A program made the position numbers and the translations under genes. From Candidatus Hodarchaeota archaeon (GTDB lineage Archaea > Asgardarchaeota > Heimdallarchaeia > Hodarchaeales > Hodarchaeaceae), in contig JAEOTM010000126.1 of NCBI GenBank assembly GCA_016839815.1, positions 1 through 11,633 of the forward strand: 11,633 nucleotides of DNA. The letters are read 5' to 3'. Below are positions 4,075 through 10,935 of the stretch, one piece after another (position 1 is the stretch's first letter; each line of letters starts with the position of its first letter). The notes under the pieces were generated by a model. That model searched no databases. It saw nothing but the letters and a program-made list of their open reading frames with translations, and had not been told where the DNA came from.

Positions 4075-4938
4075 CTAAATAACCGTTGGAAAAAGGATAA
4101 AGTACAAAATCCCATAAATCACACAAATTATCAGTGGATTAGATTTTACTGATCCAAGGGACTTGATAGCATAATATATCATCGCTACACTCCATATAAT
4201 GGCTACGATCATAATGATAGGAGAGAATACATCGAATGAGAGGCTAGTTATGATTTCTCTTTCCCAAAGGGAATTATAAACAACCTCTCCTCCTGGAGAG
4301 AATAAATAAAACAATCCTGCAATACTTTGGGTAAAAATCAAGGGAATTTGTGCCCATCCCACAATCGTAGCCATTTTTTTGAATTTACGCATATCTGAGG
4401 TGAGATCTGAGGCAAAAATCACATGCAAAATCCATAAAATGGCACTCATTAGGAACCAATTTAACAAAATTGCGAAAATTGAGGATATGGGTAACAAATA
4501 CTGATAAAAACCTTTGAATTCTTCTAGAGAAGCATCTTCAGCTCCCAGACCTAAAGGAATCGAATCAACGAACGATTCGGTGAATTGCATATCGAATTTG
4601 TTAAAAAAAATCAACAAAGCAACAGCAGTAATAAGGCCAATCACCAGATTAAGAATAAAAGGTTGAGAGAAATTTGGAGAGGAGGAAATTTGGGGCATTT
4701 CTTCTCTTGGGGCAGTTAAAGCACCACGAAAGTTTGTTAAAAATGCACGTCGTGGACTCTCTTCTACAGGTTCCGTAATTATATATGGTGCACCAACTTG
4801 GTGAGATGAAAAATCCTGAATTTTCGTTATTGGAGCTCCACAATAAGCACAAAATGCAGCATTTGATACCAATTCTTTACCACAATTACCACAGTATCTC
4901 ATAGTAGGGGAATTCTCGTTTTCCATACAATAAAGCAT
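4075..4938 (-). CDS. Zinc-ribbon + Yip1-like multi-pass membrane protein
   Basis: N-terminal YCGNCG..AAFCAYCG zinc ribbon. About five hydrophobic segments with Yip1-like patterns (ALTAPRE, FKKMATIVGWAQIP, IIWS..MIYYAIK). The start may be ATG at 4926. Confidence 0.75.
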   Translation of the reverse strand: MLYCMENENSPTMRYCGNCGKELVSNAAFCAYCGAPITKIQDFSSHQVGAPYIITEPVEESPRRAFLTNFRGALTAPREEMPQISSSPNFSQPFILNLVIGLITAVALLIFFNKFDMQFTESFVDSIPLGLGAEDASLEEFKGFYQYLLPISSIFAILLNWFLMSAILWILHVIFASDLTSDMRKFKKMATIVGWAQIPLIFTQSIAGLFYLFSPGGEVVYNSLWEREIITSLSFDVFSPIIMIVAIIWSVAMIYYAIKSLGSVKSNPLIICVIYGILYFILFPTVI

Positions 4939-5166: not shown

Positions 5167-5484
5167 TTAATAGGATCTATCCTTTAGAACGACGATTGTG
5201 AATCCAGCAGCTTCGTCAGGGGTGATAATAATCTCTGATTGAGGCATTTCAACATAAACACTTTGTAATTTTCCATGATTCAAAGCATCGGAAACGCTCC
5301 GAACTTTCTTTACTAGGGATGCTACATGTGCTGAAACACGTTCCGCATCAGATTGTGGTAAATTACTTTGTAGGGGTAATCCGTCTTCATCGCAAACTAA
5401 AATACCTCGTACGCCTCGTCTTGCTGCCAGTCTTTTTATTGTATTTTGTAAAACTGAAGGAATGACATACTCTTCACCAGACAT
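5167..5484 (-). CDS. Roadblock/LC7 domain protein (dynein light chain roadblock-like)
   Basis: TIKRLAARRGVRGILVCDEDGLPLQS...EIIITPD matches the roadblock/LC7 pattern. An AGGTGA RBS lies in the 17-nt gap after the upstream paralog. Confidence 0.9.
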   Translation of the reverse strand: MSGEEYVIPSVLQNTIKRLAARRGVRGILVCDEDGLPLQSNLPQSDAERVSAHVASLVKKVRSVSDALNHGKLQSVYVEMPQSEIIITPDEAAGFTIVVLKDRSY

Positions 5485-5501: not shown

Positions 5502-5852
5502 TTACTTATCTTTTGAGGTGAGTGTCATTTGACTACTCTCTCGTTTTACTAATGCTATAATGATAATTTCAGAATCATAATCAGGTATTATCTCGACGTC
5601 ACCAACTTCTAATTCAAGTCGTATGCTTCGAGCAATCTCCTGGGAGATTTCTTTGGATATATATTTTACTTTCCCTACAAGTGAAGCAACATGTGCCGAA
5701 ACTCTCTCTGTATCTTCACCAGGAAGACTTGATTGTAATGGTAATCCATCAGTATCACTCAATACTGCTCCATACACTCCCTTATGTTTCCCGACGGATT
5801 CTATTACTTTTTCAAGAGCTTGATGTGATAAATAACCTGCACCTTGGGACAT
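5502..5852 (-). CDS. Roadblock/LC7 domain protein
   Basis: HKGVYGAVLSDTDGLPLQSSL...VEIIPD; clear paralog of 5167..5484. Confidence 0.9.
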   Translation of the reverse strand: MSQGAGYLSHQALEKVIESVGKHKGVYGAVLSDTDGLPLQSSLPGEDTERVSAHVASLVGKVKYISKEISQEIARSIRLELEVGDVEIIPDYDSEIIIIALVKRESSQMTLTSKDK

Positions 5853-6283: not shown

Positions 6284-6787
6284 TTGAATCCTTCACAAAA
6301 AAAAATTGATATCTTGGAAGAGATTAGTCTTCTTCTTGAGAAGAAATTAGGGGAAAAGCTAGACCCATTAGTGACTTCACTTAATCTAGTATGTGATCAA
6401 ATAAGTGCTATAGATCAAAGATTATCTCTTTTAGAAGGATCTACAGGTAAAGAACTTCCAACTGTGACATTTTCTGACCCAAAAAATCCGAGGCCAACCC
6501 CACAGGTCAATTTTGATAACAAGGATGATATGATGAAACGAGCCTATGACACTCTTTCGGAGTTTCCAATGTTGAGAAGAGCATACAATGTTCTTCTTGC
6601 TGAAGCCCCTCGGCCATTAACAACACAGGAAGTTGCCGATAAAATCGGTCGAAGTAGGAGTACAACCAGTCAATACCTGAATGAACTCCAAAAAATGAAA
6701 TTATTAGATAAAGAACATGGAGAAACACCTGATCAGTCTAGAAACATTGTTTTCAGACTTTCATATAGGAACCAGGTTGAGATTTAG
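6284..6787 (+). CDS. Coiled-coil + C-terminal winged HTH protein
   Basis: N-terminal heptad-like helix (LDPLVTSLNLVCDQISAIDQRLSLLE), a Pro-rich linker, then PLTTQEVADKIGRSRSTTSQYLNELQKMKLLDK HTH. GGAG precedes the TTG start. Confidence 0.8.
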   Translation: MNPSQKKIDILEEISLLLEKKLGEKLDPLVTSLNLVCDQISAIDQRLSLLEGSTGKELPTVTFSDPKNPRPTPQVNFDNKDDMMKRAYDTLSEFPMLRRAYNVLLAEAPRPLTTQEVADKIGRSRSTTSQYLNELQKMKLLDKEHGETPDQSRNIVFRLSYRNQVEI

Positions 6788-6813: not shown

Positions 6814-7347
6814 TTAGCTAGTATATTCCAAGATATTATTGCCTAGTTTTTCGAAGGCTGTTTCGACTCCTTCTCCAGATTTTGCGCTAGTTTCAATAAA
6901 TGGAACACCAAGTCTCTCTGCTAGCTTCTTTCCTTCATCTGTTGAAACTGTTTCTGCACCTTCTTCACGTAAGTCTAATTTATTCGCCAGAAGGACAACT
7001 GGAACATTCTTTTCCCGTCCACAGTTTTTCCACATGTCATTGAGCCATTTTTCTACATTATCGAATGTTTGACGGCGTGTTACATCATAAACTACAATTC
7101 CACCGAAGATTTTGGTATAGTAAGCCTGTACGACATCTTTGAATAGTGGTTGGCCTGCTAAATCCCAGATTTGCCATCTAATTTGGGTTTCACCGATGGA
7201 TGTATCATGAAGGGCAAAATCTGCTCCCATTGTGCTCAAATAGTCAGTCTCAAATCCTTGACCTAAGTATCGTTTGCGAAGAGATGTCTTTCCTACAGCT
7301 CCATCGCCTGCCAAAACAATTTTCCATAAACGAACATCATCACTCAT
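6814..7347 (-). CDS. Rab-like small GTPase (Ras superfamily)
   Basis: G1 GDGAVGKTS, G2 YLSTMGADF, G3 WDLAGQ, G4 NKLD and G5 ETSAK. RabF-like QIW, YY and VYDVT are present. AGGTGA RBS. No C-terminal Cys. Confidence 0.95.
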   Translation of the reverse strand: MSDDVRLWKIVLAGDGAVGKTSLRKRYLGQGFETDYLSTMGADFALHDTSIGETQIRWQIWDLAGQPLFKDVVQAYYTKIFGGIVVYDVTRRQTFDNVEKWLNDMWKNCGREKNVPVVLLANKLDLREEGAETVSTDEGKKLAERLGVPFIETSAKSGEGVETAFEKLGNNILEYTS

Positions 7348-7374: not shown

Positions 7375-8121
7375 TTAACTAGGGATTTTTAATGTGATAC
7401 AGGTGTCACTTACCCATTGTGTGAAAGTAATTTCTCCTTTAAATATTCGATCAACATATATTCTATAATCTTCCGCTGCAACTTCGGTTGGGATAATCAA
7501 AAACGCATCCTTGTTTTCAATTGGTTGCAAACGAATCATAGGCTTCTCCACTCTAGAAGCATCATCAGCAGTGGCTAGTTCTAATTCTAAAAGAAATAAA
7601 AAGTCTCTTGCCTTGATATCATCAAATCCATATTTTATCATATTATTATCAGGTGCTAAATCAAGGAGTACTCTACTCCATTCACTGATCCAATATTCAT
7701 CAGTGAACCAATATTCTAAATACTCGTTTCGTTCAGCTCTGAGTTCACTTAATACAACCATATAGCGAATCATTCCTTCACGAACACGTTTCATCAGATC
7801 AAGCCCAGGCTTATCATAGAGTTCATTTAGCTTAGCCCTTTCCTTGCTTAGTATAACCATAACCTTGACTAATTCTTCTAATTGCTTATCTGAAGCGATA
7901 GGGACGTATTTTGATACTTTCTCAAGCCACTTGATGGTGGAATCGAGCTCTGGTTTACTCACTTCACTCCCACGAATTCTCCTTAGAATTTCTTGAACCA
8001 AACTCTTATTTTTAATAATTTTTTCGTAGTCCTGCGGAGGCACAACGCGACGCTCTCTAAGCATGTCTTCAACTTTCACGCTAGCGTAATCCGAGTGTTG
8101 TCTTTCCAACTCATTTTTCAC
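7375..8121 (-). CDS. Hypothetical, mostly alpha-helical soluble protein
   Basis: 248-codon ORF with protein-like composition, 27 nt upstream of the GTPase on the same strand. No family recognised. GTG start. Confidence 0.75.
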   Translation of the reverse strand: MKNELERQHSDYASVKVEDMLRERRVVPPQDYEKIIKNKSLVQEILRRIRGSEVSKPELDSTIKWLEKVSKYVPIASDKQLEELVKVMVILSKERAKLNELYDKPGLDLMKRVREGMIRYMVVLSELRAERNEYLEYWFTDEYWISEWSRVLLDLAPDNNMIKYGFDDIKARDFLFLLELELATADDASRVEKPMIRLQPIENKDAFLIIPTEVAAEDYRIYVDRIFKGEITFTQWVSDTCITLKIPS

Positions 8122-8264
8122 CTTATTTAAACACGTTTCAGAAAGTATGATTGTATTAAATCAGTTTAGACACTTCTTTCTTCTAGCACATATATATCCT
8201 CTGATGCCACTTGCATAAAGTACCCTCTTGAGCTTCAGAAGTGAAAAAAATACGCTTTCCCTTC

Positions 8265-9956
8265 TTATTCAATGTTCGGAGTGACTTTACGTACATATCC
8301 TCTTCTAGTTAATTCTTCCAGCACCTCTAACTCAACGTTTTGATCACGAAAAGTGAATTTTGACGCTGATTCGGGGGTAAGAGTTTTTGATGCAAAAAGT
8401 GCTCTAGCTGTTGGACGTAGCTTCTCAGGAAGGTCAAGTAAACCCAGAGCATCAAAACCTTGTATTTGTACATATTTTGGAGGTTCTGTACAAGAACAAA
8501 GAGATCTTCCTGTTTCTTCTTCTATAGCAAGTTTGTTAGATCTAGGATTTATTCCCAAATTCAAGAGGAATTCATGTCTCTGGTTATGAGAGGTGGTAAA
8601 TTCGTAATAAAGTAGATGATGAATGGATACATCTGCAATATTTTCTGTAACATAGTTTTGAAAAGTTTCCTCTGGATCTATTCTGAGTTGGTCGCTATTT
8701 TCACGAAAATTCAGTATATTTTCTCGTAATTGAGAATTCACTGTGTTTATTTCAAAGATCCAATCCTCAAAGACAGAATCCACCAAGTTTTTTGCGTCTG
8801 CAAATCCCCCGATTTGTCCAGTTTCATTAAAATCAATTAATGCTTTCTTAAATTCGGTCTCAAAGCGATTAGTAAAGTTCAGTAATAAGTTTGAAAGAGT
8901 CTCGTCTTCTTTAGTACTATAAAGAATCCCTATTATATTCTTTCCATACTGGAAATCAATATAGGAATTTCCATTATCTATTCCTAATAAATCTCCCCGT
9001 CTACCAGCCGTTTCAGAAATCATATGAGCAATACTACTCAAGGCAGCCGTAATCAAGGCAGGGTTCTTCATCTCATCCTCAGCTTTGCCAAAAAAGTGAT
9101 AATACATTGTTGTTCCAGAGTACCTATCAGTCATAAACAATGCTTGAGGAGAAATTACTGATTTAGGGTCCAATAAACCCAGATTTCGGATTTCGACCGC
9201 ATTAGTTAACTTCCTAATGAAATCATAAAATATATTATTCACTCGAGAGAGTGGATTCTCTAATCCAAACACTCCTTGGTCTGTAAAATTATGAATATCC
9301 TGAATCCAAGGGATTACATAAAAGATAGGCCCACGTACTTTATTCTCGAGCTTTTTCAAAAATACATCGATCTTTTCTAATATCATGGGAGGATTTACCA
9401 TGTTTACGATTAATAATGTTGGAACGGTAAGAAAGTGAAAGAAGTTTTGGATTGAGGACCTAGTTAAGCTAATAGAGGGGTGCTTATCTGTTGAGATAAA
9501 CCAGACCATTTCACTTTCCAGTAAGGTTGCCATTGTAATCGAATTTTCTTCTAATGTTGTTGGGATGATAAATATTAATATATCTATGATGTCTTTAAAA
9601 AATAAAGAGTTCACTCGATGTCTAATCTTTCCTGGTAAGCCACTTTCATTTATCTGACAACCTGCAGATGGCAGTACTCTAACAAAAGAGCCTTGTTGTT
9701 CTTCTTCATGCAATAGTAGAGATTCATTTACGAGAATATCATCTGAAATTTCTGTAATGAACTCTGAACTACTGAAATGTGACTTGCCATACTTTGAAAG
9801 ACTATACCGTAATTTTTCTGTTAACGAAAAATCAACAATTAGGATTCTAGTTCCGGGATTTGATTTTGCATATGATAAGAAAACATTTAAGGCGAGAGTT
9901 TGCTTCCCAACACTTGAAGTTCGTGAATAAATGCTAATTACTTTTGGAAATTCCAT
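8265..9956 (-). CDS. Multidomain protein: degenerate MinD/ParA-type NTPase fold + longin-like domain + C-terminal wHTH
   Basis: aa 5-250: KVISIYSRTSSVGKQT, ILIVDF, VLPS, NMV and VIPW, in ParA/MinD order. aa 270-397: LFMTDRYSG..NPALITAALSSI..FTNRFETEF..F, an Asgard-type longin pattern. aa 505-558: LT..R..LEELTRRGYVRK wHTH. Confidence 0.7.
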   Translation of the reverse strand: MEFPKVISIYSRTSSVGKQTLALNVFLSYAKSNPGTRILIVDFSLTEKLRYSLSKYGKSHFSSSEFITEISDDILVNESLLLHEEEQQGSFVRVLPSAGCQINESGLPGKIRHRVNSLFFKDIIDILIFIIPTTLEENSITMATLLESEMVWFISTDKHPSISLTRSSIQNFFHFLTVPTLLIVNMVNPPMILEKIDVFLKKLENKVRGPIFYVIPWIQDIHNFTDQGVFGLENPLSRVNNIFYDFIRKLTNAVEIRNLGLLDPKSVISPQALFMTDRYSGTTMYYHFFGKAEDEMKNPALITAALSSIAHMISETAGRRGDLLGIDNGNSYIDFQYGKNIIGILYSTKEDETLSNLLLNFTNRFETEFKKALIDFNETGQIGGFADAKNLVDSVFEDWIFEINTVNSQLRENILNFRENSDQLRIDPEETFQNYVTENIADVSIHHLLYYEFTTSHNQRHEFLLNLGINPRSNKLAIEEETGRSLCSCTEPPKYVQIQGFDALGLLDLPEKLRPTARALFASKTLTPESASKFTFRDQNVELEVLEELTRRGYVRKVTPNIE

Positions 9957-10089
9957 AGATATTCCCCTACACTGACATTACTGTAGTCACCTTAAAGAGT
10001 TTGATGGTTTTGGCTAGTTGTGATTCGGAATTTAAATAAAAAAATCTGAGGTGGAGGTTAAAACTCTCTCAATCTCTCAAGATTTTGAG

Positions 10090-10935
10090 TTAATATTTGT
10101 AGAATCCTTCTCCTGATTTGCGCCCAATTTTTCCAGCACGGACCATTTTCCTCAAAAGAGGAGCTGCTTGAAATTTTACTCCTAATTCGTCCTTAAGATA
10201 ATCTAAAATATGAAGTATGGTATCTAAGCCTATTAAATCAGCTAAAACCAATGGACCCATTGGGTGATCCAAACCAAACTTAATAGATTTATCAATTTCT
10301 TCAGGTGTTCCCAGACCATCTTGTAGCATATAAACCCCTTCATTTATAACAGCAGAAACAAGACGAGTTGTAGTAAAACAAGGTAAATCGTTAATTAAAA
10401 CAGTTTCTTTTCCAATTTTTTTGCAATAAGCCAAAGATTGATCACACGTCTCATCAGATATTCTCTCCCCTTTGATAACTTCTACAAGTTTCATCATTGA
10501 AACAGGATTAAAAAAATGCAAGCCAATAAATCTTTTTTGGCGTTTTTCTGGAAGTTCAGACGCTAAATCAGTGATACTAATAGCAGATGTATTCGAAGCG
10601 AAAATACATTCATTAGAGCAGATAGAATCTAATTTGCTATAAGTGGCCTTCTTAAGGGCGATATATTCAGGAATTGTTTCAATAATTAACTCACTTGGCT
10701 TAAAATCCTTTAAATCAAGAGAAGGAGAAATTCGACCCATGATCTGTGGAATTTCGTCATCAGATAATTTGTTTTTCTTAACCATACGCGTTAGGGATTT
10801 CTTAATTTCCTTCTAACCGTGATCTATAAATTTTTGATCAATATCGTATAAAATTATGTCGTAACCTGCAATTGCAGATACTTGAGCTATTCCATTCCCC
10901 ATTATTCCAGCACCTAATACTCCAATTGTCTTCAT
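10090..10935 (-). pseudogene. hbd: 3-hydroxybutyryl/3-hydroxyacyl-CoA dehydrogenase interrupted by an in-frame TAG at codon 41
   Basis: ATG at 10935 gives MKTIGVLGAGIMGNGIAQV...DHG*KEIKKSLTRMVKK, in frame with the 231-aa ORF (ASNTS, GLHFFNP, HPMGPL, GRKSGEGFY). The TAG is at 10813-10815. The full length would be 281 aa. Confidence 0.8.

Follow-up and report, generated by a model that had tools for sequence, protein, structure and literature searches.

A predicted ParA/MinD pseudo-ATPase fused to longin and winged-helix domains, encoded beside a Rab-like GTPase gene in Hodarchaeales

We analyzed an 11,633-nucleotide stretch of AT-rich DNA (G+C fraction about 0.35; hereafter the window) from Candidatus Hodarchaeota archaeon, contig JAEOTM010000126.1 of assembly GCA_016839815.1, and focused on its minus-strand open reading frame (ORF) at positions 8265-9956. 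The 563-residue protein encoded there, P0001, appears to be a fused and inactivated derivative of a two-gene cassette in which a ParA/MinD-type ATPase is encoded next to a protein that joins a longin domain to a winged helix-turn-helix (wHTH), because each P0001 domain is homologous to one part of that cassette. We think it probable that P0001 now serves as a non-enzymatic adaptor, composed of a silenced ParA/MinD module, a longin platform for a Rab-like GTPase, and a zinc-stapled linker with a charge-neutral wHTH. A first-pass annotation, made from the sequence alone, had described a MinD/ParA-longin-wHTH fusion at this ORF, and the motifs that it quoted are present (S11-RTSSVGKQ-T20, V41-DFS-44 and D125-ILIFIIP-132); it missed that the protein is the fused form of a recurrent ParA and longin-wHTH gene pair, that the linker carries an HxxxH...CxC motif, and that the wHTH is charge-neutral. 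The parts of the gene are as follows:

8265-9956, minus strand: whole ORF of P0001, 563 residues, ATG start, TAA stop at 8265-8267
9171-9956, minus strand: predicted ParA/MinD-fold domain with degenerate catalytic motifs (pseudo-ATPase), residues 1-262, from profile, AlphaFold2 (AF2) model and Foldseek
9897-9926, minus strand: eroded deviant Walker A, SRTSSVGKQT, residues 11-20, from alignment
9825-9836, minus strand: switch I / Walker A', VDFS, residues 41-44, from alignment; second Asp of DxD replaced by Ser
9561-9584, minus strand: Walker B strand, DILIFIIP, residues 125-132, from alignment; Asp two residues before Pro replaced by Ile
8757-9161, minus strand: predicted longin domain, residues 266-400, from Foldseek, VIA-align and profile
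8472-8756, minus strand: predicted helical linker, residues 401-495, from model helices (predicted local distance difference test, pLDDT, 75-89)
8574-8588, minus strand: HxxxH (H-N-Q-R-H), residues 457-461, half of a candidate zinc site
8490-8498, minus strand: CxC (C-S-C), residues 487-489, other half of the candidate zinc site
8268-8471, minus strand: predicted wHTH with short wing and net charge 0, residues 496-563, from VIA-align and hhalign

The derivation from a cassette rests on profile comparisons with gene pairs found in the same genomes. When orthologue-only profiles of the P0001 domains were aligned by hhalign with cassette parts, the N-terminal domain matched the cassette MinD at 96.6% (E 6e-10), the longin domain the cassette longin at 94.3% (E 1e-7), and the wHTH the cassette wHTH at 97.5% (E 6e-12), against at most 0.4% for mismatched domain pairs used as controls. 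Split cassettes occur in the genome of the window itself: contigs C21 and C205 each have an intact MinD gene overlapping or abutting a gene for a longin-wHTH protein of 211-213 residues, on contig C96 a helix-wHTH gene abuts a MinD gene, and the genome holds at least 8 intact MinD/ParA paralogues. On contig C151 an intact MinD gene (SYKGGTGKT) is separated by 2 bp from a gene for a 414-residue pseudo-MinD-longin protein, and the two belong to a tight minus-strand run at C151:26757-36746 (loci L006 and L021) that encodes the intact MinD (274 residues), the 414-residue protein, a 515-residue protein and a 2111-residue protein. Across the class, 34 of 83 genomes encode members of the longin-wHTH family, frequently more than one, and 20 of the 24 loci retrieved have such a gene directly 3' of an intact MinD gene. 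A maximum-likelihood tree joined the pseudo-ATPase domains of the 560-residue and 420-residue forms in one clade (support 97/90); the intact ParA lineage ancestral to them was not resolved by this tree, in which the backbone had support of 12/26 and branches were long. Also in the window's own genome, C154:9974-12096 (minus strand) shows a separate arrangement: a 393-residue protein ending in a longin domain is encoded immediately upstream of a divergent MinD-like gene (269 residues), whose product forms a long branch near the pseudo-ATPase clade.

Profile matches and structural matches of the model together establish a SIMIBI/MinD fold, as had been proposed, for the modelled residues 1-262. 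A profile of these residues that included distant family members (A3) matched, in a search against the PDB, CapB tyrosine kinases (E 1.7e-9), the Borrelia ParA PF-32 (E 6e-8), Pyrococcus furiosus MinD 1g3q (E 5e-7, residues 5-260) and further MinD, Soj and ParA chains. The AF2 model of the domain, built from a 43-row alignment (pLDDT 91.8; predicted template modelling score, pTM, 0.91), retrieved MinD, FlhG, ParA, Soj and FleN in Foldseek with E-values of 1e-11 to 1e-9, probability 1.00 and TM-scores of 0.65-0.78 across about 250 columns, with MinD 4v02 at E 1.3e-11 and TM-scores of 0.71/0.76. Searched alone against Pfam and NCBIfam, P0001 gave only sub-threshold matches to CbiA (0.015, residues 7-222) and AAA_31 (0.078), and the single sequence also matched the BY-kinase family eps_fam below threshold (0.039). 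The domain model and its deeper alignment replaced a first full-length AF2 model, which was built from a shallow alignment of 23 close orthologues (N-terminal domain mean pLDDT 65.6, pTM 0.41) and placed MinD only at Foldseek rank 46. An orthologue-only profile (A1) drew from the PDB nothing but spurious acetylcholine-receptor matches, none better than E 0.03, which arose from the hydrophobic strand of Walker B. A DENN-like N-terminal domain, a reading prompted by the Asgard Roadblock-Rab-DENN operon (10.1101/2020.10.19.343400), was rejected, as sequence and structure both make the domain a homologue of MinD/ParA, and it precedes the longin domain instead of following it.

P0001 resembles the SIMIBI deviant Walker A ATPases MinD, ParA, Soj and FlhG (CbiA PF01656, AAA_31 PF13614) in whole-domain fold and at the profile level, and it keeps two of their residues, the Asn in the 'NM/NR' motif of a beta-strand and the first Asp of switch I, but it departs from an active member in four motif tests. 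As reference we took the intact MinD/ParA proteins encoded beside distant P0001 homologues, which read HSYKGGTGKT, DFD and IFDTSPG (or IIIDTGPG) where P0001 reads YSRTSSVGKQT, DFS and IFIIPTT. Alignment with these proteins bore out the loss of the signature Lys and the glycines that had been noticed in Walker A, with Thr in place of the Lys and Arg, Ser and Ser in place of the three glycines before GK. The Mg-binding Thr after GK is Gln in P0001 and, in most orthologues, Lys; in Walker B, Ile occupies the place of the Asp (ILIFIIP against IFDTSPG), an alteration that was also described correctly. For Walker A', the description 'VDFS instead of DxD' holds only for the second Asp, which is S44 in P0001 and is missing from all pseudo-ATPase members; D42 is kept, and the motif is better read as D-F-S. 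These losses are preserved in 23 of 23 aligned orthologues, in distant homologues of 568-579 residues (one of them annotated as Thorarchaeota) and in forms of 414-428 residues, which answers the orthologue survey that the first-pass annotation had suggested. Substitution of the second switch-I Asp is by itself enough to block hydrolysis, as in MinD D40A and Soj D44A, and because four residues that the family requires for hydrolysis are lost, we infer that the N-terminal domain is catalytically dead.

The P-loop itself looks eroded and not erased, since G17, K18 and T20 are invariant among the 23 orthologues. So are D42 and N185, and across live and dead members together D42 is invariant while S11, N24 and N185 are nearly so. 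Given the five invariant positions, the domain may retain binding of a nucleotide or phosphate, and P0001 might then act as a nucleotide-binding switch or sensor, whose P-loop would take up ATP, ADP or some other phosphate ligand but not hydrolyze it in a Mg-dependent way, and whose ligand state would set dimerization or the position of the longin domain and wHTH. This account draws further on the Lys or Gln at the place of the Mg-binding Thr and on the constraint on the pseudo-ATPase, whose ratio of nonsynonymous to synonymous substitution rates (dN/dS) is the second-lowest of the four parts of the protein. We nonetheless find it unlikely: the three glycines that give the P-loop its shape have been exchanged for bulky Arg, Thr, Ser or Pro, the signature Lys required for the nucleotide-sandwich dimer is gone, and the sister forms of 414-428 residues are retained even without GK, so the fold is kept without a P-loop. 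A sensor of this kind overlaps the adaptor explanation instead of excluding it, and not all of the alternatives weighed here are mutually exclusive with an adaptor.

Residues 266-400 are best modelled as a longin and not a roadblock domain, because Z-scores are about 12 to its best longin matches against 9.2 to MglB and 7.4-7.5 to Roadblock/LC7. These scores come from a VIA-align structural search against representatives, in which the longin match spans residues 266-401 and is highest for a VAMP7-type longin (Z 12.2; root-mean-square deviation, rmsd, 3.5; 127 aligned) and for Sec22 and Trs23 (Z 12.1), followed by Mon1/Ccz1 (Z 10.5), SRX (Z 8.7-10.8, with 10.8 its best) and a Lokiarchaeota longin (Z 9.4). 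Foldseek gave probability 1.0 against AP sigma subunits, zeta-COP and Bet5, and the model has the order beta-beta-alpha-beta-beta-beta-alpha, with a strongly conserved stretch, SETAGRRGDL..IDNGN. The longin-like central domain of the earlier description is upheld by these matches. Sequence points weakly in the same direction: the best PDB match of the longin-domain profile was BET5 (E 0.067), Pfam gave no match for the longin domain of P0001 itself, and among 30 longin-domain relatives single members matched Sybindin (0.0032) and Longin (0.12), marginally and in scattered fashion. P0001 appears to have a true longin fold while belonging to none of the curated families of longin sequences.

A helical linker and a C-terminal wHTH follow, again as first described, with helices in the model and the matches of the wHTH to TFE-alpha and to its cassette counterpart in support. 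BLASTP found no paralogue of the linker in the window's own genome, and the short longin-wHTH proteins of the cassettes lack it. Its H457-x3-H461 and C487-x-C489 are invariant in the 23 orthologues and retained in all distant full-length homologues, including those at 22-30% identity, and P0066, P0067, P0068 and P0071 are among the distant homologues that keep them, which suggests a candidate zinc site. For residues 502-563, VIA-align returned TFE-alpha (Z 8.2, rmsd 2.4, 62 aligned) and TrmBL2 (Z 7.4), and the stand-alone wHTH relatives P0157 and P0212 match Pfam TrmB at 3e-5 and 6e-5. The wing is short, with one strand modelled and the protein ending about 10 residues past helix 3. A transcription factor built on such a domain would bind the promoters of the neighboring GTPase, Roadblock and Yip1 genes and use the longin domain or pseudo-ATPase as its sensor, an idea in keeping with the resemblance to TFE-alpha, TrmBL2 and MarR-type domains and with an invariant R537 at the start of the recognition helix. 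We regard it as very improbable, given that the wHTH has a net charge of 0, a truncated wing and a Glu-rich, acidic recognition helix (ELEVLEEL), and that the gene cluster already holds a separate, conventional wHTH regulator (6284-6787, plus strand). Because this wHTH is charge-neutral on an acidic protein (-17 for the whole of P0001), a DNA-binding role is not favored and contact with protein seems the likelier function.

Homologues and selection indicate a conserved gene. P0001 has 65 homologues at 44-88% identity, nearly all of about 560 residues; most are nameless, those with names are mostly 'hypothetical protein', and the named ones and all 19 related loci come from metagenome-assembled genomes labelled Hodarchaeales/Hodarchaeota, Heimdallarchaeota or other Asgard lineages. 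Compared with the closest orthologue, dN/dS is 0.05 for the whole protein and 0.037, 0.059, 0.086 and 0.027 for the pseudo-MinD, longin, linker and wHTH parts, values that are approximate at a dS of about 1.6. All domains are under strong purifying selection, and a chance ORF is excluded by far by this dN/dS together with 65 homologues of at least 44% identity. Of the 21 genomes in the window's family 19 have the gene, each in one copy, as does 1 of 2 in the sister family; a search of 278 other Asgard genomes did not find it at E 1e-20 or better, and among the genomes searched it is limited to Hodarchaeales. A domain-by-domain BLASTP search of the window's own genome found no close paralogue of any P0001 domain. 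Because of its low dN/dS, single copy and lineage-limited distribution, the gene behaves as a stable, lineage-specific core gene, unlike a fast-evolving defense gene.

This behavior bears on the possibility that P0001 still belongs to a ParA-wHTH defense system, in which the dead ParA would pair in trans with an intact ParA/MinD and the wHTH would bind invading DNA. A mainly archaeal 'ParA-wHTH system' of the ConB2 ParA assemblage was described computationally in October 2026. Its rapidly evolving wHTH component is sometimes joined to a profilin/longin-like domain, its proposed role is to counter selfish elements, and the passages of the preprint that were searched name neither a fused inactive form nor Asgard archaea (bioRxiv 10.64898/2026.10.19.760177). 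P0001 shares the three domain types of this system, each homologous to a cassette part (hhalign 94-97.5%), and intact cassettes and at least eight potential intact partners exist in its own genome. Moreover, the Thorarchaeota-labelled homologue P0067, the 414-428-residue forms (such as the 425-residue P0167 and the C151 gene) and P0071, which lacks the N-terminal domain, all adjoin an intact ParA, and a role against selfish elements has been hypothesized for the split cassettes (bioRxiv 10.64898/2026.10.19.760177). We still judge membership of such a system quite improbable. The system couples an active ParA gene to a wHTH gene, whereas P0001 is one polypeptide whose ParA part lacks the catalytic residues, and none of the 17 Hodarchaeales loci with sufficient flank has a ParA gene nearby. 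The wHTH of the system is described as rapidly evolving and is often multi-copy, and the cassettes seen here are multi-copy, tandem and divergent, with paralogues only 25-49% identical, whereas the P0001 gene is present once per genome, slowly evolving (wHTH dN/dS 0.027) and fixed in one chromosomal site amid housekeeping genes beside a Rab-like GTPase gene. P0001 also differs from the cassettes in its inserted 95-residue linker with HxxxH...CxC and in its uncharged wHTH, compared with charges of +5 and +16 in the two stand-alone helix-wHTH proteins of the same genome that were checked.

Among better-known proteins, P0001 resembles the eukaryotic longin regulators of GTPases (TRAPP Bet5/Trs23, Mon1-Ccz1, DENN and NPRL2/NPRL3) in its longin fold (Z 10-12) and in that its gene adjoins small GTPase and Roadblock genes. 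NPRL2 and NPRL3 of GATOR1 have a longin followed by winged-helix repeats, the layout seen in P0001 (PMC3747258). Unlike these regulators, P0001 has no sequence-level family membership, with marginal and scattered Pfam matches and none seen to NPR2 or NPR3 for P0001 and the relatives checked, and its N-terminal ParA fold has no counterpart in TRAPP, Mon1-Ccz1, DENN or NPRL2/3. The Rag GTPases (G domain with C-terminal roadblock) and SR-alpha (longin-like SRX with SIMIBI NG) likewise join a nucleoside triphosphatase (NTPase) fold to a longin- or roadblock-type domain in one chain, but the NTPase of P0001 is of the ParA/MinD class and not Ras-like or SRP-type, is predicted to be inactive, and stands in the reverse order to that of SR-alpha. 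Rag chains were among the top whole-model Foldseek matches of P0001, and chains of GATOR1 and the SEA complex matched the model only at an rmsd of 18-22 A; whole-model matches to Rag GTPases and GATOR1 chains, at about 20 A, were rejected as similarity of domain order only. The homology shown to NPRL2/3, Rag and SR-alpha is that of the individual folds.

The longin domain is one of a large family. The family profile is matched by 343 representative proteins, most of them through the longin domain, 29 ORFs with this domain are present in the window's own genome, and fusion partners across the family include membrane domains with 6-7 transmembrane (TM) helices, MFS transporters, CBS domains and others. 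Most commonly, a membrane domain of 6-7 TM helices precedes a longin at the C-terminus, in proteins of about 360-390 residues, as at L019:781-1878 (plus strand), L023:1372-2547 (minus strand) and L025:760-1902 (plus strand) of the same genome, and MFS-transporter fusions occur at L016 and L017. An hhalign match of the N-termini of the roughly 360-residue longin proteins to the pseudo-MinD was rejected as an artefact of one truncated orthologue (P0063), those N-termini being 6-7 TM domains.

Around the P0001 gene, the window contains candidate signals for its expression and a set of conserved neighbors:

10031-10040, minus strand: TATA-box-like element TTTATTTAAA, about 80 nt 5' of the ATG; weak, in AT-rich DNA
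9962-9968, minus strand: possible ribosome-binding site, purine-rich AGGGGAA, from sequence, 5' of the ATG
8244-8250, minus strand: T7 run (oligo-T), 15-21 nt past the stop codon; likely archaeal termination signal, as judged from sequence
7375-8121, minus strand: 248-residue protein of no known family, between the P0001 and GTPase genes
6814-7347, minus strand: Ras/Rab-like small GTPase, Pfam Ras 5e-47, intact G1-G5 (GDGAVGKT, DLAGQ, NKxD, SAK)
6284-6787, plus strand: conventional wHTH regulator gene, divergent orientation
5502-5852 and 5167-5484, minus strand: two tandem Roadblock/LC7 genes
4075-4938, minus strand: zinc-ribbon and Yip1 membrane protein

Because a T7 run follows its stop codon and a TATA-like element and purine-rich site precede its ATG, the P0001 gene is probably its own transcription unit. 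In 17 of 17 Hodarchaeales loci with sufficient flank, the order is P0001 gene, 248-residue orphan (where present), GTPase, wHTH regulator, two Roadblock genes and zinc-ribbon-Yip1, where the Yip1 gene was counted only if the contig extends to it and the wHTH regulator was detected by BLASTP in 16 of the 17. The orphan is found in 9 of the 17 loci, and in the other 8 a gap of about 250-340 bp takes its place. A more distant locus, L003, has a P0001 homologue of 27% identity in the order [568 residues][196 residues][GTPase], the middle gene encoding a 30%-identity relative of the orphan at the same position, in otherwise different surroundings. When full-length P0001 was co-folded with the GTPase, the score was 0.32 against 0.00 for the best of three controls. 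Among 80 complexes of known structure, 58 reached this mark, and among 110 mismatched pairs 2 did; of those that reached it at 0.60 or below, only 7 came from the 80 complexes, alongside both mismatched pairs. At least 68% of contacts were common to the co-fold runs and the partner pLDDT was at least 73, and no interface is reported from them. The co-fold raises the odds of the GTPase pairing only a little. Matching presence and absence of the P0001 gene and the GTPase orthologue was given no independent weight, as the genes are adjacent and one missing contig removes both.

Under the explanation that we favor, a ParA/MinD-type ATPase gene would have fused with its operon partner, the longin-wHTH gene, and the ATPase domain would afterwards have lost its catalytic residues. 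Unable to run the ATP-dependent dimerize-and-hydrolyze cycle of ParA/MinD, the pseudo-ATPase domain would have become a fixed structural or docking module, which may still hold nucleotide through its invariant residues. Longin and roadblock domains act as platforms for GTPases (PMC3747258), and the longin domain of P0001 would do so as other characterized domains of these kinds do, with the adjacent Rab-like GTPase as its likeliest client and the two Roadblock proteins perhaps joining the longin-GTPase assembly. The HxxxH...CxC linker would bind zinc and hold the neutral winged helix, which would contact protein more likely than DNA. A stronger claim, that P0001 is a working guanine-nucleotide exchange factor, GTPase-activating protein or membrane-recruitment platform for that GTPase, built from a prokaryotic ParA-partner module, we consider unlikely at present.

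Several observations weigh against this adaptor explanation. Given the invariant G17, K18, T20, D42 and N185, nucleotide binding and even slow turnover could persist. P0067 and the 414-428-residue forms adjoin an intact ParA gene and no GTPase gene, which makes a ParA the ancestral partner. The housekeeping neighbors folE2 and RibD are conserved across the Hodarchaeales loci too, and for that reason the synteny is partly mere kinship, with independent support coming from L003 alone. The T7 run past the stop codon and a 143-bp gap suggest that co-transcription of the P0001 and GTPase genes is unlikely, and a co-fold pass this weak misleads more frequently than it succeeds if the pairing was not already likely. 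In favor of the first-pass idea of a scaffold linking Rab state to spatial positioning or transcription, the GTPase gene adjoins the P0001 gene in all 17 Hodarchaeales loci with sufficient flank and at L003, and the co-fold adds weakly to this; the linking role itself is still a matter of inference.

Other features of the cluster were seen alongside. The tandem Roadblock genes are its slowest-evolving members, with proteins 82-100% identical across loci, compared with 55-88% for the P0001 orthologues there and 30-53% for Yip1. In two related genomes, second copies of the Rab-like GTPase gene, at 71-72% identity, lie away from the conserved locus, at G060:C40:5545-6072 and G061:C7:19416-19943. 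Upstream of P0001, a 3-hydroxyacyl-CoA dehydrogenase gene (10090-10935, minus strand) has an in-frame TAG at codon 41 (10813-10815), where orthologues have Leu; the remainder is in one frame, with 87% identity over all 281 residues, and nonsense mutation, sequencing error or a codon that is read through would each explain the TAG. The listed ORF at 10090-10785 is an N-terminally cut remnant of this dehydrogenase without its GxGxxG part.

In current placements, no archaea are closer to eukaryotes than the Hodarchaeales, and matching their many small GTPases to regulators is an open problem. The locus described here sets a Rab-like GTPase beside a longin-bearing protein, a Yip1 membrane protein and two Roadblock proteins, a pairing that is defined, conserved and open to testing, in a group of archaea, the Asgard lineages, where GTPase genes are rarely in operons with longin or roadblock genes (PMC10933270). 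It also shows that a longin used alongside ParA/MinD-type ATPases in split cassettes can enter a stable chromosomal gene together with a silenced ATPase, which is relevant to how longins became platforms for different classes of NTPase. Even if the link to the GTPase fails, P0001 would stand as a clear natural pseudo-ATPase under strong selection. If it does regulate the GTPase, P0001 would be a living intermediate from the archaea nearest to eukaryotes: longin-wHTH adaptors that partnered ParA would there have been re-used as small-GTPase regulators of the NPRL2/3, Mon1-Ccz1 or SR-alpha kind, with the dead ParA fold supplying an internal pseudo-NTPase partner.

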